A stretch of DNA of 37,633 nt from a virus, in UHGV virus genome UHGV-0208093. One strand, 5' to 3'. The notes under the pieces were generated by a model. It saw nothing but the letters and a program-made list of their open reading frames with translations. It was not told where the DNA came from and did not search any database. The stretch's first letter is position 1. Each line of letters starts with the position of its first letter. Made by a program: the position numbers and the translations under genes. Shown here piece by piece: positions 4,818 through 19,248 of this stretch.

Positions 4818-6119
4818 TCAATAGTTTAAGGTTTGCCCTGGATAAATCAAGTTAGGGTTAACTAACCCGTTTCGTTGTGCTAAAGCTTGATAAGTCGTAC
4901 CAAGTTTAGCTGCAATGCTAGATAAATTATCACCGTATTGGACTGTATAAACGTTGCTTACTACTGATCCATTGACTTTCAAAACTTGTCCAGGGTAAAT
5001 AAGATTTGGATTGGCCAATCCATTTAACGAAGCTAAGGTTTGATAGTCTGTTCCGTATTGATAAGCAATACTTGATAATGTTTCGCCGTATTGTACCACA
5101 TGGGTTGCTTCTGGTTGCTTGTCAGGAACAGTTGTTGAATCTGGCAATAATTCAATATCGCCTTTGCTAATCCATGACAAGATACCTTCAAGCAATACTC
5201 TGCTTCCAGTTACTTCTTGTACTTTATAGCTGTTTCCTTTTACCCATTGCGGAATAGCTTCACCAGTTGCCCAAGCATCGACATTAAATTTCACTTTGAC
5301 GGTATCACCAACTTTAACATCAGAATTCGGTGTTTTTTCGATTTCTTCACCTGCATCTATTGCTGGCGTGTCCGTTTCTGGTTTATTGGTTTCTGTATAA
5401 CCACTATCCGTAATTCCTGTTAAATCTACGTTACCATCTAAACCACCTGCAATATAAGCGGATGTGAATTGCCAAATGCCAATACCATTCATGCTTGGGA
5501 AATAAGCATACAATGGATATGGTGACACACCATCGATAGGATACGCAGCAATCCATAAAGAATTAGGAAACTCTTTGATGATTTGTTGATAGTTTACATG
5601 ATTTAGTGTAAATGGCTTATAGCTGTAATACATTGGAGTATAGCCAGCCTGTTTGATTCTGCGCATACCGTACAAAATTGTCTCTGTATTTGCTGCTTTT
5701 TCGGCATCTGAACTTACATATCCTCCATATCCATCTGGAACACTAGCCAACGCTCCATGTTCAAAATCTAATGCAACGATGGAATTTTTAGGCGTTTGAA
5801 TACGTGGCAAAAAGTAATCCATTGTTGTTTTCGCAATGTCCATGTTTCCCCAAGTGTCATACCAAATATAGGTATGCGCACGTTTACCTTGAGCAATAGC
5901 ACTTGCTACTTGCGTTTTATATGTGTATTGTTCATAAATACCGCTAGCATTGTAGCCACCAATCTGGGCAATAGCGAATTTATCATGCGCATAGCCAAAA
6001 CGACCTTGTTCACCTTGATAAATCGCCCAGTCAACGCCTTGGTCACCTTTTGCAGCAAATACATTTAAAGGCATAAAAAATAGAGCGACAAGCGCTCCAA
6101 CTAAAATTTTCTTTTTCAT
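4818..6119 (-). CDS. Endolysin. N-terminal cleavable signal peptide, GH25 muramidase domain, a central beta-rich domain, and two C-terminal LysM repeats.
   Basis: [25 protein letters not shown] signal peptide. [11 protein letters not shown]25 motif. Two LysM repeats near 47 aa each ([17 protein letters not shown]...YPGQVLKV and [17 protein letters not shown]...YPGQTLNY). Confidence 0.85.
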
Positions 6120-6639: not shown

Positions 6640-8430
6640 TTATGCTAACGATCCATCAGGCAATCTGTTAAGAATTGAAACAGAACCGCCATTTAAAGAA
6701 CCTTCATTCGGGAAAGGATCTTTAGTCAGCCAAGAACCTTGTACATAAGTATTTCCATTGTGTGCACTACCAAACCGGATATCTTGTGGAGATCCCTCTA
6801 CAATTGCCATGTAATTTTTAGCTGCTGATTGTGCGAATGACCATTGTGATACTGACAAGCTATTATTAAAATACGTATTTGAGATTAAATCGCCAAGCGT
6901 TCTAAAACCCATTGGCAAATCATAAATAACCGGCATATCATTACCAAATTTAGTATAATCCTTAACATTTATACGCATATTGAAAAATACCGTATTTCCT
7001 ATTCTAAAGATGTCCACTTTACTTTCCGTTGCATTGATCGCATCTTTTGCTGCCTGAACTTTATTAGACAAATCCAAAGAAGTTCGTAAATAACGATAAA
7101 CTTTGTTTTCTTCTAGTATATCTTCAGTCGATGCAATTTTTGTCCAATTAGTCCAGGTTGCAGGACTTCCTTGACGACTACGGGTATACGTTTCGCCTTT
7201 ATAGATATAAGTTTGATTGATGAACGTATTATCTGCATATACAACAAGTACACCGTACACAGCCCCGTCATAAGGCCTATTAATTCCTGAAGCACCAAAC
7301 ACTGTGTAAATACCTTTATCTAAAATCTCATTCCAATTTTGCGCTTTAATTACTGTCTTTTTAGAAACTAATGCTCCATTTTCTATATCAGTTAAGTTTA
7401 CAACACTGTCTGTAGTAGCCAAAATTTTGAACGGACTATTTTGAGAAGAATTAGGAGAAATCGTTCTAAATGCAATTAAAGGTGTTGTTAAAGAATTCAT
7501 TCTAATTTCTTGATACATAGCTCCCGCGGTGCCTGCAATGGCATGTTGATAAACATATAGAGCAGAATATTTAAATTCAGGCGGTAAATCTGCTTTGTCA
7601 GTCATTGTTCCCGCAACTGTAGCATCTAGATAATAAAAACCAGCATAACCTGATAATTCTTTAAATGAAGTTACTCCCTTTGGCAAAGGTAGACCTGAAC
7701 CATCATCATTAGTTAACTTTTTATTTTGAATGTCAAGGTTTTCCGTTTTACTTAAAAATCTATTATCAGCTTCCTGTTTCGTATAGAAGTTTCCCTCTTT
7801 AAACTTTTCAAGTGCTGCATCAACTTCATCTGTTACTGACTTCCCAATGGCTGAAATGCGACCTTCTGCATCCACCAATATATCTGTTATTTGTTTTTTT
7901 AGCGTATTTAAATCTACCTTGATCGCTTCAATACGTTTTTCAACATCATCATAATCAGTATTCATTTTATTTAGTGCAGCTTGATATGCTTCATTCAAAG
8001 CTTTTACAAGTTTATTGTATTCAGTAATAATTGTTTCAGCTTCTCCGGCATCAATGTCAGCATTTCCTTTAACAATGATTTTAAAGTCTCCCGTAGTATC
8101 TCTTTTCCCATCTTTTTGAAACGAAAAATATGCCCTTTTGTACGTCCCTTCTACGCTAAACGCTGCACTAGGAAACGTGTATTCAAATGTTCCTTTTTGC
8201 AATTCAGCGTTATTAGAAGAGACGTTTTCAGAATCAAAAACTTTCACTTTTCCGCCTGCAGGTTCTCCCTCAAAGGTAATGATTCCACCCGATAAATCTG
8301 GTATCTCATCTCGTCGAGAAATTTTCACAGTAATTGTTTGCATTTTTTCATCGCCGACGCGTCCATAAATAATCGGTGGCATGATTGGATCCTTTGAAAA
8401 ATCGAGATTTAATATCTTATTCGCCATCAA
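6640..8430 (-). CDS. Tail fiber / receptor-binding protein with a BppU-like N-terminus.
   Basis: N-terminus MANKILNLDFSKDP... resembles baseplate upper protein. Last gene of the tail module. 596 aa. Confidence 0.55.
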   Translation of the reverse strand: MMANKILNLDFSKDPIMPPIIYGRVGDEKMQTITVKISRRDEIPDLSGGIITFEGEPAGGKVKVFDSENVSSNNAELQKGTFEYTFPSAAFSVEGTYKRAYFSFQKDGKRDTTGDFKIIVKGNADIDAGEAETIITEYNKLVKALNEAYQAALNKMNTDYDDVEKRIEAIKVDLNTLKKQITDILVDAEGRISAIGKSVTDEVDAALEKFKEGNFYTKQEADNRFLSKTENLDIQNKKLTNDDGSGLPLPKGVTSFKELSGYAGFYYLDATVAGTMTDKADLPPEFKYSALYVYQHAIAGTAGAMYQEIRMNSLTTPLIAFRTISPNSSQNSPFKILATTDSVVNLTDIENGALVSKKTVIKAQNWNEILDKGIYTVFGASGINRPYDGAVYGVLVVYADNTFINQTYIYKGETYTRSRQGSPATWTNWTKIASTEDILEENKVYRYLRTSLDLSNKVQAAKDAINATESKVDIFRIGNTVFFNMRINVKDYTKFGNDMPVIYDLPMGFRTLGDLISNTYFNNSLSVSQWSFAQSAAKNYMAIVEGSPQDIRFGSAHNGNTYVQGSWLTKDPFPNEGSLNGGSVSILNRLPDGSLA

Positions 8431-14400: not shown

Positions 14401-14772
14401 TAGTAAACTAGCGCTAAAACTTGTTACGTTTTCCATATATGCATTCGCTGATAACCCAGATGTTTTATACGCTTCATCTGCATACTTTTTTACTTTGTCC
14501 GCACTACCTTTGAATAATGTTTCAATCCCACCGAGGGATTGTTGTAGATTTGCTCCTTCTGAAATTGCGGTAGAGAATGCAGTTTTAATTGATGAAATAG
14601 CTTTGCCTACAACTGCAGAAGCAACTTTTACTAATCCCATTGAGATAGCTAAATTTTTTATAGAAAAACCAGCTTTGTCACTACTGCCTTCCAATTGATC
14701 TAGCTGGCTGTTAAGCCCAGCTACACTTTTACCATTAACATCAACATCAATTACAACTTGCCCATCAGCCAT
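11452..14772 (-). CDS. Tape measure protein, with about 11 internal tandem repeats of roughly 20 aa.
   Basis: 1106 aa. Repeats of the form xIIDAxVNLxxNFLxGIxNNxxR. Hydrophobic segments. Position after the chaperone pair. Confidence 0.9.
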   Translation of the reverse strand: MADGQVVIDVDVNGKSVAGLNSQLDQLEGSSDKAGFSIKNLAISMGLVKVASAVVGKAISSIKTAFSTAISEGANLQQSLGGIETLFKGSADKVKKYADEAYKTSGLSANAYMENVTSFSASLLQSVGGDTEKAADVANMAMIDMSDNANKMGTNMQDIQNAYQGFAKQNYTMLDNLKLGYGGTKEEMQRLLSDAEKLTGVKYDISNLSDVYNAIHAIQENLDITGTTAKEAAETLSGSFAAMKASLSNVLGKMALGQDIQPSLNQLAETTATFLFGNFIPMIGNILKALPRAIVTFVKASIPHVKAAFAELLDSIGDKFPIFDKLFELISKNAQIIKFLGSVIVGAIAGFIAFKATIGIMNSVKTAINGVKTAFSLMKVAMMANPFAVVIAGIGALIAAFIYFYKTSDTFRNKVDGMVSTLKSFMKPIDQVFKGLKLLSKGFVEMLTNGPGEKIAELRSQFIKLFPESLWQGMINFTGKINDMKLGIKAIGKIMSGSIKNMSELGNFLEGAFTVKGEQNIMKIGKAIKNVIDSLKKLINPTERVGKSFDIVGVGLKILKMVILGMMGPVGLFIKVFELLAKALGGGDVNKGIDTIMNSFKGLAEGIKTYGPQLGTNFGTALQGILGAIANALPGIITGALQVVSGFISGIAQGLPSIVVSAGELIMAFTNGIVTLLPIIAQSAVQIINALTNGILLVMPTIIESATTIITTFLGSLTEALPKLLGAGASLINALLQGITEQLPKVVQNMATLIITWLSELNKYLPDILQAGFNLLVNFLRGIANNIGRVTNEAISIIVNFVNAIGNRMGDIIDAAVNLMINFLNGLSSRMPDIIDAGVTLIVSILQGISNNLSRIVDAGMDLVVKCIEGIGNNLYRLVNAAADLVDKLVENIINFSDRMWKAAIRLINGLAEGIDNNKEEAREAVKRLVNSLGSAIVGDELWDAGTSLMGGLLKGIKWGFEKVKGFVSGIADTIASLKGPIPYDKKVLIDNGSALMFGLEKGIIAGFDNVKHLTSNMADSISKELSFDNAFSNFNFTSPELALNTNMMGAANLGSQIVNNSNFAKTYNPTININIEHADLSNEKSIEETSQQLATLTERQTRGRL

Positions 14773-15346
14773 CTTCTTCCTCCTCTCCTAAGTCAGTATT
14801 AGGTAAGGCATATTTCCTTTTTAACTCTCGCATTCGACGTTTTTCTTTACTTGATTCCCCTTTTTGAGGTTCCCAATTCCTAATCTGAATAATCCTCTGC
14901 ATAATACAATTATCTGGTAGACTCTCTAAAAGTGCTTGAAACTCTTCCCAACTCATTTTTCCTTGTTCTTCGAAAAGATTAATACCAATTTGACGAAAAG
15001 AAGCATAGATATACTTGGCATCATAAACCAAATCTATATCTTTACTATTTATTTTAGTTGGTAATTCATTGCCTAATTCATCAGTTTCAACTTCGGAATG
15101 TTGACCTAAAAGCAGGTATTCATCATAAACGTATTTAAACATTTCAAATTTTTGTAGTATATCTAAATCAACTTCCCCAACTAAGATTAGAATCGAAAGT
15201 TCAATCTTATCTTCTAATATCAAACTCTCATCTTGTATTATTTCAAAAACATCAAGGACATGATCAAACGCTAAGTTTATTGGAAATTCTTTGCTCAAAA
15301 ACGAAAAGGATGTAGTCAGCGGATTATTCAACCGCATAATACTCAT
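14765..15346 (-). CDS. Tail assembly chaperone (gpT-like). It is in the -1 frame relative to the upstream chaperone, but it has its own ATG/SD that overlaps the upstream stop (ATGA).
   Basis: Acidic protein between the major tail protein and the tape measure. A 4-nt start/stop overlap with 15343..15762. Confidence 0.55.
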   Translation of the reverse strand: MSIMRLNNPLTTSFSFLSKEFPINLAFDHVLDVFEIIQDESLILEDKIELSILILVGEVDLDILQKFEMFKYVYDEYLLLGQHSEVETDELGNELPTKINSKDIDLVYDAKYIYASFRQIGINLFEEQGKMSWEEFQALLESLPDNCIMQRIIQIRNWEPQKGESSKEKRRMRELKRKYALPNTDLGEEEEDG

Positions 15347-15762
15347 CCTTTCTTTTTGCTAACTTTTTTTAGATATTCTTGTTTTAATTTTTTTGATTTT
15401 TTACCACGCTCATCTAATAATTCAGTCTGTTTCTTAGTGTATTCTTCAATAGATTCACTAATACCTACTGATAAATCGTAAAAGGCGTTTAGCCATGCGA
15501 TTATGTCTGGGATGTCTTTATACAAAATTGCAAACGTACCTTCACCAAGTACGGAATCATACCCTTTTGTCAACACAGAAATATATAATTCATCACTCAT
15601 TTCCTCAGAATTTTCATCTAAGTCTTTCAGTTCTTGTACGACTTTATCGTACGTTTCTTCATATTCTTTTATATGCTCTAATGAACAATCAAAGAAAAAT
15701 TCGTGCCCAGCAATTTTCACTGGAAAACCAGTACGCTCTACTTTAATCTCTAATGCTTTCAT
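15343..15762 (-). CDS. Tail assembly chaperone (gpG-like).
   Basis: 139 aa acidic protein upstream of the tape measure. Lysine-rich C-terminus with AAAAAA/AAAAAG runs. Confidence 0.55.
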   Translation of the reverse strand: MKALEIKVERTGFPVKIAGHEFFFDCSLEHIKEYEETYDKVVQELKDLDENSEEMSDELYISVLTKGYDSVLGEGTFAILYKDIPDIIAWLNAFYDLSVGISESIEEYTKKQTELLDERGKKSKKLKQEYLKKVSKKKG

Positions 15763-15890
15763 TTAATTACCTCCATAAAAAAGGACAGCCAAATAGCTGC
15801 CCTTATTTTCGTATTTATGCTTGATTATTTAGTGTTAAGGTATGTTGTGCTGTTTTCTTACCATCCTCTGTTTCGCCTTTGGTAACATAA

Positions 15891-16268
15891 TTACCAGCCG
15901 GTACTTGCTTCTGTCCAAGTAATATAACCTGTTTCAGAGACAGCAAGACCTTCTGTTACAGGCGTAATAGAATAGTTTACTTTTTTATTTGTAGCATTTT
16001 CAGGCAAAACAGTTGCTGTGATTTGTCGGCTACTTGCTGTACCCGCATTTGCTGTGGACGTTTTAGGAGAAAACTCTAAGCCTGTTACAGCAATTGGCGA
16101 TGTTTTAAATGACGGTACATCTACTTTTTCGCCGCCGTCTGCAAAACCTACTTTGTATGTTCCTGATGGAACGTCGGTGTTTGGCTCAATACCTGTAATT
16201 TCTAGAGGGCTTGGACTAGCCGGAACAATGACTTCCTCACCTTTATAAACAATATACTCTCTAGCCAT
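15891..16268 (-). CDS. Ig-like (Big_2-type) domain protein. Decoration or tail-associated.
   Basis: Beta-rich sequence ...ITATVLPENATNKKVNYSITPVTEGLAVSETGYITW. Own SD AAAGGAG. Immediately after the major tail protein gene. Confidence 0.55.
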   Translation of the reverse strand: MAREYIVYKGEEVIVPASPSPLEITGIEPNTDVPSGTYKVGFADGGEKVDVPSFKTSPIAVTGLEFSPKTSTANAGTASSRQITATVLPENATNKKVNYSITPVTEGLAVSETGYITWTEASTGW

Positions 16269-16341
16269 TCTTATTCTCCTTTCTCCATTTCAATGATTAC
16301 CCCAGTTTTAGTCGGAGTCATTTTACCGATTACTGGGGTTA

Positions 16342-16821
16342 TTATACTTTTGGGGTGATATTAGGTAAGGTATCAAAGGTAATCGTGCAGCTGAAATCTT
16401 CATACTCTGTCGCATCTCCTGCACCAGCGACAATATCTGTTACTGTTGCACGCCCTACATAAGTATCGCCATTCGTCATAATAATTTTATGCCAAATCTT
16501 ACGATTTTCTCCAATTTTGTATTTTTTACTTGCAATTAATTTTTGTGCGGGATCTTCTGGGTCATAAAATCCTTCAGGACTATAAGCACCAGAAACAGAA
16601 GTCACTGTAGTTTCTGGTGTACCATCGCCATCATAGAAACCTGCATCGTCCGTTTCTTCATCGGTATCATCGCCAATTGAACTAATGTACTTGGCAAGAC
16701 GTTTCCACTCTAACTCGGTAGTTGGTGCTGTTTCTTTCCCAGGTACATACTCAGCAATAAAATGCTGCCGTTTTGCATTTTTGTTCCGTGCAAACATTTG
16801 AATATTCATTTTTAATAACAT
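16342..16821 (-). CDS. Major tail protein. Its 3' end carries a -1 frameshift site; see findings.
   Basis: 159 aa. Position upstream of the chaperone pair and tape measure. Typical major-tail-protein sequence features. Confidence 0.75.
   Translation of the reverse strand: MLLKMNIQMFARNKNAKRQHFIAEYVPGKETAPTTELEWKRLAKYISSIGDDTDEETDDAGFYDGDGTPETTVTSVSGAYSPEGFYDPEDPAQKLIASKKYKIGENRKIWHKIIMTNGDTYVGRATVTDIVAGAGDATEYEDFSCTITFDTLPNITPKV
16348..16354 (-). promoter_or_regulatory. -1 programmed frameshift slippery heptamer C CCA AAA, two codons before the major tail stop. A stem-loop CCCCAG/CTGGGG (16300..16338) lies 9 nt downstream. The -1 frame encodes a 26-aa extension ending at 16271.
   Basis: Same heptamer and register as the capsid gene. 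A downstream hairpin with covarying stem bases. Confidence 0.6.
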
Positions 16822-17219
16822 TAATTTTCCTCCTTAAATGTGGTTAATTTTGCTTGAAAATCTAATAAAAAAACGAACCAACCTTGTTCATCAGCTTCAT
16901 TAATGAACGGTTTGCTCGTTATCATTAAATTATTACACTCAAAAGAGCCATCTTTACTTGATAATTCTTCAATACTTTCTAATACATCTGAAAGAAGCCA
17001 CAACGTATGCTCTAACTTATTACCGTCTTTTGATTTCATAGCAATTTCATAGTTTAACAACTCGTCTTTGATTCCGTCATAATATTCGGTTTCTACCTTA
17101 CCGCCCGGTAATGAGTAAATCACTAAACTTTCTAGTGCTGAAAGGTATCCTTTCCGGATATTTAACGGCAAATTTGGAATCTGATTTATCCTTTCGTTTA
17201 AACAATCAAGAAAATCCAT
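16821..17219 (-). CDS. Tail completion / tail terminator-like protein.
   Basis: 132 aa, position between the head-tail joining genes and the major tail protein. Confidence 0.4.
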   Translation of the reverse strand: MDFLDCLNERINQIPNLPLNIRKGYLSALESLVIYSLPGGKVETEYYDGIKDELLNYEIAMKSKDGNKLEHTLWLLSDVLESIEELSSKDGSFECNNLMITSKPFINEADEQGWFVFLLDFQAKLTTFKEEN

Positions 17220-17545
17220 TATTTAATACCCGCTCCTTTCAAAAAGGCACGTTCCCACGAATTCATATAAGCACCTTTTGCTTTTAAATCCCACCGTGGT
17301 CCAGTCCCAGGCGTAGTATATTTTTTTCCATTTAGATAAAATTGGCGTTTCGCATATTTTGTACCATAAATAATCTTTTCACCTTCACTTGATAAATGAG
17401 CGCTTTGCCTTAAACTATTATTTTTTCGTGGTACAAATTGATTCATATCTGCCATCGCTTGATTACCAAGCGCATATCTGCCTCGTCTCATTGCCTCAGG
17501 GCTTACTTTGGTTCTTACACCGCTTAAATTCACCTTAATCCCCAT
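17219..17545 (-). CDS. Head-tail joining protein (HK97 gp10-like).
   Basis: 108 aa, position and size. Confidence 0.4.
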   Translation of the reverse strand: MGIKVNLSGVRTKVSPEAMRRGRYALGNQAMADMNQFVPRKNNSLRQSAHLSSEGEKIIYGTKYAKRQFYLNGKKYTTPGTGPRWDLKAKGAYMNSWERAFLKGAGIK

Positions 17546-17886
17546 CAGACTACCTCAATCTCATACGAGTAGACATCATTCGAATAGGCTTCAATTACGG
17601 TATCAACTTTAGTGATTACGTGTTCTTTGTCATCGTAAATAACTACTGATTGTTCTTTGAACTCAGGCAAAGGCGTAGTCAATTCGTGATAACAGAAAAT
17701 CAATCCGTTATAAAGCAATTGTTTGCCACTTGATGAAAAAGTATATTGGCTTCCTCTGTCAATTCGGCAATACTCAATAAGGATCGGTTCCTTGTATACT
17801 GGCTTGTTCCAATCGCCCTCCCCTAAGTACTCTTTATACTCAAAGGAATCAACTAAGAATTTTTTGGGTGGCTTTGGCATTAGCAT
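17545..17886 (-). CDS. Head closure / head-tail adaptor protein.
   Basis: 113 aa, position after the connector. Confidence 0.4.
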   Translation of the reverse strand: MLMPKPPKKFLVDSFEYKEYLGEGDWNKPVYKEPILIEYCRIDRGSQYTFSSSGKQLLYNGLIFCYHELTTPLPEFKEQSVVIYDDKEHVITKVDTVIEAYSNDVYSYEIEVV

Positions 17887-18284
17887 GACGAAACACCTCG
17901 ATATAACAAACCTGTACCTTCCAGATACAAATAAACGTCTTCGGCAGTTAACGACTTACTTTCGTTATTTCCAGAAGGATTGTAGCGACTGGCATTAGAA
18001 ATACTCGTACGGCCTGCTGAAAAGCTTTGAGGGGCATTGTTGATACTTTCATACGTATCCGCACCAACATCGACAAAATACATTATTTGCGCACACAGAG
18101 CGAGTTTAAACTGTTTCACTCTAAATTGCCTAGAATCTTTCATTATATCATTGAACTGATAAAAGTAATTCGTTACGTTATCAATCGCTGCGGTGGCTTT
18201 TACTAAATATTTGTCAAAGTTATCTTTATATTCATCTGCGGCGCCTGTAAGCTCTTTAAACTCTTCAAAATCAATATAGGACAT
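17880..18284 (-). CDS. Head-tail connector (gp6-like) protein.
   Basis: 134 aa. SD AGGAGG upstream. First gene after the capsid gene terminator. Confidence 0.5.
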   Translation of the reverse strand: MSYIDFEEFKELTGAADEYKDNFDKYLVKATAAIDNVTNYFYQFNDIMKDSRQFRVKQFKLALCAQIMYFVDVGADTYESINNAPQSFSAGRTSISNASRYNPSGNNESKSLTAEDVYLYLEGTGLLYRGVSSC

Positions 18285-18302
18285 CTTAGATTCCTCCTAA
18301 AA

Positions 18303-18329
18303 AAAGAAGGAGACTAAGCTCCTTCTTCC
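18303..18329 (-). terminator. Intrinsic terminator after the major capsid gene and its extension (GAAGAAGGAG...CTCCTTCTT, then T7). Probably leaky.
   Basis: Perfect 9-bp stem followed by a T-run on the minus strand. Confidence 0.6.
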
Positions 18330-18381
18330 ATTTCAATAACAACCCCGCTTGTTGTCGGCGTTAGTTTACCAACTTTCGGGG

Positions 18382-19248
18382 CTACACTTTTGGGGCAACA
18401 CCTTTAATAATCGCTTTAGCATTTTTTTCAGGGATATATTTGCCATACTTACCTGCCGCTTGTAACGCTGTGCCTGCGAAATCTTCTGAATCCATAGCAC
18501 GTGCTACTTGAATACCTACGCCAGCTACACCTACGTTATCAGCTGAAAAAATTGCTACCTCATTTGGTTGAAATTTTTCATCTGGTAACTCTTCTAAAAC
18601 AAACCCTTTAAATTTGTATAAAGTTTGTTCATCAACATTAGCGGATGAATTTTTAGAAGTTGTTGCAAGTTTTGAATCAATTAATAAGTCGTAAACGTCT
18701 GAATTAACATAGGCAACCCATGCAACGTTTTGAGAAACATTGTTATTAACAAATTTCTTATGAGCATTAGAAAATAGTTTTGTAATACCAGCTTCATCTA
18801 ATGTAGTGGTTAGTTCTTCACTTGCATTGTCAGATAATGCTTTGCCTAACAAGTTATCCACATGTTGCGCCCAGGCAACAGCATGCAAAGCTAAGCGCTC
18901 TGCTACAACTTGATCAGGAATATCATTTACAGTAAACTGATCGACACCTTCATGAATTGAAAGTGGCGCTTCATATTTAACTTGTTTATTGACTGATTTA
19001 ACTTCTTTACGTTTACCAAAACGGCTTGAGCTGCCTGTCCCTGTTCCAAATCCTACATTTTCATCTGTCGAATATGCTTGAATAACAACGTCCGTATCTG
19101 TAACTTTCAAATCTAGAAATGTATCGTTTTGAGAGACTCCGTCTTTTGTCTGTAAAGTACCTCCGAAAGCACGTAAAAATACTGCTTTTTTAGCAAACAG
19201 TTCTGGCAAAATACCTGCATATTGTTTAGTGTAATATTTGATTGACAT
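18382..19248 (-). CDS. Major capsid protein. Its 3' end carries a -1 frameshift site; see findings.
   Basis: 288 aa. Position after the scaffold. Followed by a hairpin terminator, consistent with high expression. Confidence 0.8.
   Translation of the reverse strand: MSIKYYTKQYAGILPELFAKKAVFLRAFGGTLQTKDGVSQNDTFLDLKVTDTDVVIQAYSTDENVGFGTGTGSSSRFGKRKEVKSVNKQVKYEAPLSIHEGVDQFTVNDIPDQVVAERLALHAVAWAQHVDNLLGKALSDNASEELTTTLDEAGITKLFSNAHKKFVNNNVSQNVAWVAYVNSDVYDLLIDSKLATTSKNSSANVDEQTLYKFKGFVLEELPDEKFQPNEVAIFSADNVGVAGVGIQVARAMDSEDFAGTALQAAGKYGKYIPEKNAKAIIKGVAPKV
18388..18394 (-). promoter_or_regulatory. -1 programmed frameshift slippery heptamer C CCA AAA, two codons before the capsid stop. A stem-loop CCCCG/CGGGG (18343..18381) lies 6 nt downstream. 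The -1 frame encodes a 25-aa extension ending at 18314.
   Basis: Heptamer in the X XXY YYZ register. Downstream hairpin. The open -1 frame is homologous to the tail-gene counterpart. Confidence 0.6.

Follow-up and report, generated by a model that had tools for sequence, protein, structure and literature searches.

Paired -1 frameshifting at the ends of a head gene and a tail gene, at the slippery heptamer C CCA AAA, is already known from Lactobacillus casei phage A2. The passages on A2 in the review by Atkins et al. (PMC5009743) state that the phage needs two -1 frameshifts, one affecting a major component of the head and the second a tail protein, and cite Garcia 2004 and Rodriguez 2005 for them. 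In the deposited A2 genome, orf5 ends ACC CCA AAA GCG TAA and orf10 ends GCC CCA AAA GCG TAG, and both -1 frames begin with PKSV and then run into immunoglobulin-like (Ig-like) domains. Here we analyze the viral genome UHGV-0208093, a 37.6-kb stretch (37,633 nucleotides [nt]) that we call the window, in which the genes for the major capsid protein and the major tail protein both end with the same heptamer and could each be extended in the -1 frame by a short shared peptide, here called the tag. A2 and the window have in common an in-register C CCA AAA followed by one codon, a stop, and a downstream structure, a -1 product that starts with PKSV, and an effect on both head and tail. The initial annotation of the window was right that the recoding site is unlike those of Listeria phages PSA and A118, but the site is not new, as the same cassette, in the form C CCA AAA GCG TAR, ends A2 orf5 and orf10. 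The products differ, as A2 adds complete Ig-like domains of ~85-95 amino acids (aa), whereas the window adds 26-27 aa that read as two strands of the FN3-like type, with the remaining FN3 fold and an Ig-like domain encoded on a separate polypeptide, here called the partner.

Other described systems share parts of this arrangement. Listeria phages A118 and A500 recode the capsid gene (cps) by a -1 shift and the tail gene (tsh) by a +1 shift, and PSA uses +1 in both; the structural module is homologous to that of the window, with matching Pfam families among the surrounding genes, and 3' recoding of capsid and tail genes likewise yields long forms. However, A118 cps ends G GGA AAC TAA and shifts -1 into the HeH-like ORF7, A118 tsh ends CCC TGA and shifts +1 into the Ig-like ORF13, and the Listeria extensions are whole domains that are unlike each other between capsid and tail. 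In Bacillus phage SPP1, recoding at the 3' end of a gene adds an FN3-type module to a minority of tail tube subunits, giving gp17.1* (PMC8718954). By this description the SPP1 FN3 module is complete and covalently attached, whereas that of the window would be split in the loop between strands B and C over two products. Frameshift-appended Ig-like domains on phage structural proteins are credited to Fraser et al. 2006 in the passages of PMC5009743 that deal with them. The theme is the same, and the same cassette leads into a Big_2 domain in the capsid -1 frame of close relatives of the window (phage 4995_2, ul36-type phages, and many uncultured ones), but the extension of the window is not an Ig-like domain, and its Ig-like domain would be supplied in trans.

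The closest counterpart of the tag itself is found in Enterococcus phage phiEf11, where the -1 frame of capsid gene ORF10 encodes the homologous KKIEAPKVESVIPTTDGASIVLS before its stop, followed by a CCCC hairpin, and the tail protein ORF15 ends in frame with the related SPSVESVTPTFDGASTELS directly before ORF16, a partner homologue of 65% identity. The slippery site of ORF10 differs, being A AAA AAA instead of C CCA AAA. In the passages of their paper that concern it (PMC5221750), the phiEf11 authors treat the 21-aa extension as speculative and link it neither to ORF16 nor to the in-frame copy on ORF15. A mechanistic analogy, with no homology to pilins, is donor-strand complementation in chaperone-usher pili, in which an incomplete beta-sandwich is completed by strands of another polypeptide; in the window, by contrast, two N-terminal strands would be donated, from the C terminus of a virion protein. 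An FN3 domain engineered into fragments is also said to be restored by complementation.

The explanation of the locus that we favor, with rather more than even confidence, is that -1 frameshifting adds tags to head and tail proteins and that these tags dock an Ig-like partner on both structures by completing its FN3 domain. What appears to be new is a short shared tag that makes up one half of an FN3 domain, the other half coming from a neighboring gene product; a literature search for split-FN3 or strand-complementation decoration in phages found no prior description, within an incomplete coverage that leaves novelty unproven.

Probable frameshift cassettes of the capsid and tail genes

All gene and cassette coordinates given here lie on the minus strand of the window. 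The list of open reading frames (ORFs) places the major capsid protein gene (288 aa) at 18382..19248, with a zero frame that ends GCC CCA AAA GTG TAG, and the major tail (tube) protein gene (159 aa) at 16342..16821, with a zero frame that ends ACC CCA AAA GTA TAA TAA. Both genes share one layout: C CCA AAA in register as X XXY YYZ (18388..18394 in the capsid gene and 16348..16354 in the tail gene), one codon, a stop, and a hairpin initiated by CCCC. The capsid hairpin (18343..18381) begins 6 nt past the heptamer and is two-tiered, with an outer stem CCCCG...CGGGG and an inner stem GUUGGU/GCCGAC (-15.0 kcal/mol; z -2.5). The tail hairpin (16299..16339) begins 9 nt past the heptamer (6 nt in relatives) and is likewise two-tiered, with CCCCAGU...ACUGGGG outside UCGG/CCGA (-16.9 kcal/mol; z -4.7; 0/200 shuffles equally stable). 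Translation in the -1 frame would append PKSVAPKVGKLTPTTSGVVIEMEEGA to the capsid protein (18314..18394, stop at 18314-18316) and PKSIITPVIGKMTPTKTGVIIEMEKGE to the tail protein (16271..16354, stop at 16271-16273). These peptides of 26/27 aa are homologous, and the 3' segments that encode them form a 66-nt direct repeat of 73% identity (16276-16341 and 18319-18384), with similarity running from the heptamer to the -1 stop. Moreover, CCCAAAAGTRTA is present exactly twice in the window against an expectation of 0.02, and two or more copies arose in 0/100 shuffles. The count, the repeat, and the hairpin z-scores together indicate that the shared cassette is real and not a product of chance. The initial annotation had predicted the in-register heptamers, the 6- and 9-nt gaps, the stem-loops, and the homologous -1 peptides, and all of these were confirmed.

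The tail cassette carries a 3-nt insertion at 16339-16341 that is specific to the window, which reads GTA TAA TAA CCCC where all relatives read GTA TAA CCCC. The insertion creates a double zero-frame stop, adds an Ile to the tag, and widens the spacer between heptamer and stem from 6 to 9 nt; the -1 frame survives it. Directly after the capsid tag lies a terminator-like hairpin, GAAGAAGGAG CUUAGU CUCCUUCUU followed by a U-run (18302..18329 in the minimum free energy [MFE] fold of 18300-18392), with the TAG of the capsid -1 stop within the loop. The 5' arm of this hairpin, GAAGAAGGAG, is the capsid counterpart of the ribosome-binding site that the tail copy provides for the partner gene, an AGGAG (16276-16280) within the last codons of the tail tag. 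A consensus terminator scan made no call at the hairpin after the capsid tag, and an interplay of frameshifted ribosomes with termination is possible there. Neither gene has a +1 "shifty stop," in which CCC precedes the stop and a +1 extension follows, as the genes end AAA GTG TAG and AAA GTA TAA and their +1 frames are closed. Transcriptional slippage was also considered and was rejected, given an A-run of only four bases.

The cassette is conserved among relatives of the window. Viral contigs that are closely related retain the in-register heptamer in both genes, the capsid heptamer being kept in all of them, and the heptamer is retained in diverged tail genes with 77-81% aa identity and altered flanking codons (AGC CCA AAA GCA/GCG). 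Moreover, the same tag cassette was found on a Lactobacillus LL-H g34-type capsid, which has only 27% BLASTP identity over 70 aa to the window capsid, and similarity between the two genes starts exactly at the heptamer. Because the same cassette sits on a barely related capsid with its boundary at the heptamer, it behaves as a mobile unit. Conservation of the heptamer, the stem-loop, and the -1 frame, which the initial annotation had named as a check on its proposal, is seen, with the heptamer in register both in diverged tail genes and in a barely related capsid family.

Selection on the -1 frame was analyzed with four diverged versions of the tag, namely, those of the capsid gene, the window tail gene, the L001 tail gene, and the L102 tail gene. 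Variable columns fell at codon positions 1, 2, and 3 of the tag frame in the numbers 10/5/15, and the ratio of nonsynonymous to synonymous differences per site (pN/pS) was 0.20-0.54 in the tag frame but 0.85-1.4 and >1.5 in the other two. Within this small sample of variants, the open -1 frame shows the evolution of a coding sequence, in agreement with the synonymous differences first noticed between the two genes, and indels in the tag region are multiples of three. Cells of the stem were paired in 87% of cases overall, compared with 23-48% when partner columns were slid, and hairpin pair 11-41 shows a compensatory change, with 5 variants having A-U and 4 having G-C. The predicted covariation of the stem is therefore real but amounts to few events, with one or two compensatory pairs. 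The coding and structure signals appear to agree, small as the sample is.

Searches beyond the close relatives placed the cassette in a wider family. A tblastn search of a phage collection with the 26-aa tag alone gave no match, and a strict DNA pattern for the tag (TPTxxGVxxEM) matched only the close Enterococcus prophage group, for which reason the cassette pattern CCCAAAAGNNTARCCCC was adopted. A scan of viral contigs with this pattern found at least dozens of capsid or tail genes ending PK[AVG] before the stop. Among the matches listed, the -1 frames read PKS[VLI][AT]P and then one of three types of extension: a Big_2 domain of ~90 aa, a HeH/SAP-like segment of ~50-60 aa, or a short tag (18-26 aa). 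In the MFE fold, the CCCC that follows the stop was fully paired in 90% of 81 unique capsid or tail contexts among the matches listed, as opposed to 20% of 20 control occurrences that had no long upstream ORF. Enterococcus phage 4995_2 has the same heptamer and a PKSVAP linker followed by a complete Big_2 domain, and relatives that share the cassette carry Big_2 extensions of 88-92 aa. At 26/27 aa, the extensions of the window are not the complete Ig-like domains of ~80-100 aa (Big_2, I-set, or FN3) that characterize the Fraser 2006 class.

Two further sets of capsid genes were observed. The ~80% identical capsid genes of Lactococcus ul36-type and Streptococcus thermophilus 987-group phages (L011-L035 and similar) end ACA AAG TAA or A AAA AAA, and a long Big_2 domain is open in their -1 frame (SNKVIAPKSVTLNKTTLSL...), unannotated in the records listed. 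In Latilactobacillus phage TMW 1.706 P2 (L090), the capsid and tail genes end GCG TCA AAA TAA CAGCCCC (4850-4935 and 7080-7170), the -1 frames encode the short tags KITAPTLSAAPTADGATITGK and KITAPEAVAVTGTKDGGNVTAQ, and a partner-type ORF of 73 aa follows the capsid tag. The slip site of L090 (A AAA before the stop) is unlike the heptamer of the window.

The long forms with a shared tag that had been proposed for the window are supported by the in-register heptamer, the selection on the tag frame, the conserved hairpin, and the restriction of indels to multiples of three. Frameshifting itself is suggested by identity with the A2 cassette. We conclude that -1 frameshifting very probably adds tags to the capsid and tail proteins of this phage.

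The tag and the partner as a probable split FN3-like domain

The partner gene (15891..16268) follows the tail gene, with an ATG at 16268 that lies 2 nt beyond the tail -1 stop and a ribosome-binding site within the tag. Its product matches phrog_341 (E=6e-45) and, weakly, Big_2; the N-terminal ~55 aa would supply FN3 strands C-G, an incomplete FN3 domain, and a Big_2 Ig-like domain follows. The gene carries a 1-nt insertion at 15905/15906 that is specific to the window (GAAGCAAGTACC, compared with GAAGCAGTACC in the 99%-identical locus L005), as a result of which the ORF stops at 125 aa and the last ~30 Big_2 residues are out of frame. Homology carries on in the other frame to about 15816, and all relatives have an intact ORF of 150 aa. 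The insertion may mean that the gene is a pseudogene, or it may stem from an error in sequencing or from a recent mutation.

A profile was built from the window tag joined to the N-terminal 61 residues of the partner and was used for an exhaustive HMMER search of 1.84 billion representative proteins. About 30 matches start at query position 28-34, which corresponds to their own residue 1-9, and are split partners. Nine proteins span the junction between tag and partner; P0014, P0019, P0037, P0011 (in several repeats), and P0050 align contiguously over it, and in the classical FN3 repeat proteins P0039, P0045, and P0047 the match takes in the tag and strand C. The unsplit P0014 reads PPTVESVTPTDTTASIEM-NSGNGITGST-MILYLASDDSEVTSSTSPLILTGLEPETTYPAGTWYV...VDVPEFTT and, between PPTVESVTPTDTTASIEM and VDVPEFTT, includes MILYLASDD..SPLILTGLEPETTYPAGTWYV; the window counterpart runs as PKSVAPKVGKLTPTTSGVVIEM-EEGA up to the junction and goes on as MAR-EYIVYKGEEVIVPASPSPLEITGIEPNTDVPSGTYKV...VDVPSFKT in the partner. 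The alignment across the junction was made with trimmed domains, as MAFFT alignment of full-length matches misplaced the register of the tag. A word-indexed protein search with the chimera of tag and partner returned only 10 close partner homologues, with the partner part covered.

An AlphaFold2 model of the fused window tag and partner, made with a 46-row alignment, reached a predicted local distance difference test (pLDDT) score of 87.5 and a predicted template modeling (pTM) score of 0.74; in single-sequence mode, the chimera reached a pLDDT of 28. In the fused model, tag residues 9-14 and 19-23 form beta-strands (pLDDT ~94) and the junction is a loop. Foldseek matches of the model in the PDB were at the top essentially all FN3 domains, with a probability of ~1.0 and a TM-score of 0.5-0.6 but weak E-values (2e-3 or worse). 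Sub-threshold Pfam matches to fn3 and Big_6 were obtained for the chimeras of phages EH93P1 and IMEP5 only, the EH93P1 chimera matching fn3 over profile positions 3-81 of 84 (E=0.0045, sub-threshold).

The junction-spanning homologues and the fused model assign FN3 strands A-B to the tag, on both the capsid and the tail extension, and strands C-G to the N terminus of the partner, with the split in the B-C loop. The halves are on separate polypeptides, as a stop, a ribosome-binding site, and a start lie in between, and the frame relation of tag to partner differs among phages. We conclude with considerable confidence that the tag and the N terminus of the partner are halves of one FN3-like domain.

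Tag and partner pairs in other phages and proposed docking in trans

A homologous tag is present in every phage that was retrieved solely by its partner homologue, whether in the gene just upstream, in another major virion gene, or in both, as in phiEf11. Staphylococcus phage 187 has one tag beside the partner gene, in the +1 frame of the capsid gene, and another in frame on the tail protein, and phages IMEP5, 47, and EH93P1 have it in the +1 frame after CCC-type sites. The +1 sites of these four phages (L203-L206: Staphylococcus phages 187, IMEP5, and 47 and Enterococcus phage EH93P1) read CCC TAA, CCC TCG TAA/TGA, or CCC AGC TAA and are followed by CCCCAAAA...GGGG long-range stems (e.g., -35 kcal/mol in IMEP5); in appearance they are +1 recoding sites of the Listeria tsh or SPP1 type that have escaped annotation. 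In the Staphylococcus myovirus SA11 (L207, NC_019511), three consecutive genes at 934-2329 form a chain of split halves: gp079 ends in the tag PKNVTVTAKETTADITAE, gp078 has a partner half at its start, then a Big_2 domain, and the tag PTDVTVDPKETTADITA at its end, and gp077 is a partner half alone. In L093/L168, L141, L191, L192, and Latilactobacillus phage TMW 1.706 P2, the tagged capsid gene is directly followed by an ORF whose N-terminal ~55 residues are homologous, whether or not it also contains Big_2 or FN3 domains. Within one phage, the capsid and tail tags are alike. The split thus recurs in Enterococcus, Staphylococcus (sipho- and myoviruses), Lactobacillus-group, and uncultured phages, with -1, +1, or in-frame decoding.

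Partner homologues have been found in virions. By matrix-assisted laser desorption ionization mass spectrometry (MALDI-MS), the partner homologue of phage 47 was present at its unfused mass (15,871 Da predicted, 15,875 Da observed), and proteins of 23.1, 17.7, and 7.8 kDa of phage K, which are annotated like the three chain genes of SA11, were likewise present at unfused masses (PMC5923470).

We also note two viral contigs, L115 and L188, with different short tags (..AAKVGTAKLGGK, ..SAKVGDATL, and ..TAKVGDTKVGIAKL) ahead of small ORFs that combine a tail-fiber-like N terminus with a collagen-like Gly-X-Y stretch. These may represent a second family of tags and partners.

The mechanism that we propose for the window begins with a fraction of ribosomes that would slip by -1 on C CCA AAA at the ends of the capsid and tail genes, with the hairpin 6-9 nt downstream acting as the stimulator. 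The slipped ribosomes would pass the stop one codon later and add the 26/27-residue tag to a minority of capsid and tail subunits. The partner would be made from its own start codon, with a first domain that, to judge by the organization of the sequence, lacks two strands. The tag would then complete the FN3 fold of the partner in trans, as in fragment or donor-strand complementation, and the completed FN3 domain would tether the Ig-like protein noncovalently to head and tail, such that frameshift efficiency sets occupancy.

Several observations support docking in trans. The same split is found with each of three decoding modes, capsid and tail tags within a phage resemble each other, partner homologues occur in virions at unfused masses (PMC5923470), and fragments of an FN3 domain are reported to complement each other with high affinity, as the title of Dutta et al. 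2005 indicates. The initial annotation had raised a common docking or decoration motif as one possibility for the shared tag, and the evidence points that way, although the tag is not a free-standing motif but the first two strands of a split FN3-like domain. Other observations weigh against the proposal. Frameshifting in the phage of the window is a prediction from sequence, and the coding signal is based on four diverged tag versions with ~30 variable sites. Pfam gave no significant fn3 match for the chimera of window tag and partner. The AlphaFold2 model, being that of an artificial covalent fusion built on an alignment with unsplit homologues, speaks for sequences that are compatible with the fold and not for binding in trans. 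The partner gene of the window is itself frame-disrupted near its 3' end, and one partner would have to serve both tags, as no partner gene follows the capsid tag. Finally, in the virion protein analysis reported in PMC5221750, mass spectrometry of phiEf11 detected no extension peptides despite two capsid bands on gels. We infer that the halves associate in trans to dock the partner, a step that we hold to be slightly favored by the evidence. Whether half-FN3 C-terminal tags (-1, +1, or in frame) and five-strand partners assembling in trans make up a widespread mode of decoration we regard as an even question; such a mode would also chain three proteins in Staphylococcus myoviruses, let recoding efficiency set occupancy, and constitute a natural split tag/catcher pair.

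In another reading, frameshifting occurs but the tag is a functionless stub, made of the linker and the hairpin-coding stretch that remained when a stop, a ribosome-binding site, and a start interrupted an ancestral FN3/Ig extension appended by frameshifting; the partner would then reach the virion by different contacts, if it does so at all. Close relatives such as phage 4995_2, in which the same heptamer and PKSVAP linker lead into a full Big_2 domain, fit this reading. RNA elements (the hairpin, the ribosome-binding site, and the terminator arm) that could account for conservation of nucleotides overlap a large part of the tag, and the disrupted partner gene of the window fits a stub as well. 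A stub is nevertheless unlikely, as coding-like substitution is found in the tag frame only and includes the V/I-rich strand past the hairpin, and as the split recurs across phage groups under decoding modes that include in-frame translation. Moreover, a stub would leave unaccounted for why the two tags of one phage stay alike and why the partner is a virion protein in Staphylococcus phages.

The position of the -1 stops could instead indicate that the frameshift is mainly regulatory. Shifted ribosomes would melt the tail hairpin and terminate at 16271-16273, 2 nt before the partner ATG at 16268, thereby coupling translation of the partner, whose ribosome-binding site is inside the tag, to the rate of shifting. 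At the capsid gene, where the -1 stop is in the loop of the terminator-like hairpin, they would meet that hairpin and modulate read-through into downstream genes. Tags of other phage groups also end just before the ribosome-binding site of the next gene. Regulation would leave unexplained, however, the conservation at the amino acid level, the in-frame tags of phiEf11, phage 187, and SA11, and the homology of the tag to FN3 strands A-B; it is compatible with docking as an added layer rather than a replacement, and as the main function we find it improbable.

There is little room for a reading without recoding, in which the shared ~80 nt are a duplicated noncoding element (a 3' untranslated region, a terminator, or an RNA-stability hairpin) and the open -1 frame is incidental. 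By standard annotation both copies are intergenic and contain hairpins, and an open frame of 26 codons is not rare in AT-rich DNA; Rfam, which holds no family matching the cassette hairpin, favors neither side. Yet the heptamer is within the upstream coding sequence, is always in register, and persists on genes that have diverged or are barely related. A2 has an identical cassette, the 3-periodic pattern of substitution indicates coding, and the same peptide occurs in frame in real genes and within unsplit domains. We consider this reading very improbable. A second recoding event (read-through, a hop, or a second shift) that fuses tag and partner into an A2- or SPP1-like capsid- or tail-FN3-Big_2 protein would suit the frames of phiEf11 and IMEP5, where the partner ORF shares the frame of the tag with one stop between, and of the window, where the partner is read in -1 relative to the tag, but it can be largely dismissed, as the frames and the start offsets (82, 86, 87, and 92 nt from the heptamer) vary, every partner is provided with a strong ribosome-binding site and a start codon of its own, and partner homologues such as that of phage 47 appear in virions at unfused masses by MALDI-MS.

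Genomic context and significance

The tagged genes belong to a morphogenesis module of the A118/ul36-like type, in which Pfam identified a scaffold, Minor_capsid_1/2, a tail terminator, and Gp15 among the neighboring genes. The capsid ORF (18382..19248) matches the phrog_840 major head protein (E=1.5e-135), and its product has ~80% aa identity to the major capsid proteins of Lactococcus ul36 and the S. thermophilus 987 group. The tail ORF (16342..16821) matches the phrog_820 major tail protein (E=1.3e-60), and its product is 44-46% identical to Tsh of Listeria A118 and A500. Pfam searches with the window capsid and tail proteins gave no meaningful family. The nearest relatives of the window, in DNA and in protein, are Enterococcus (pro)phages. 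Directly after the partner gene, a consensus intrinsic terminator (15781-15804) separates the partner from the tail-chaperone genes at 15343..15762 and 14765..15346, which are DUF6673 and Gp15.

If the frameshift part alone is right, the window adds one further member to the A2-type class. If docking is also right, it would explain how orphan Ig-like proteins of the phrog_341 type, which are often misannotated as "major tail protein" and which are encoded by phages of Enterococcus and Staphylococcus, among them therapeutic phages of the phage K kind, are attached to virions. It would also give a reason for recoded extensions of only ~20-26 aa and for matching tags on head and tail, and hundreds of phage genomes would then miss recoded tails and misname the partner. 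The pair would be a small, natural, noncovalent split-FN3 system usable for phage display or virion decoration. Moreover, production of the same peptide by -1, +1, or in-frame decoding would be a clean natural case of recoding that sets stoichiometry.

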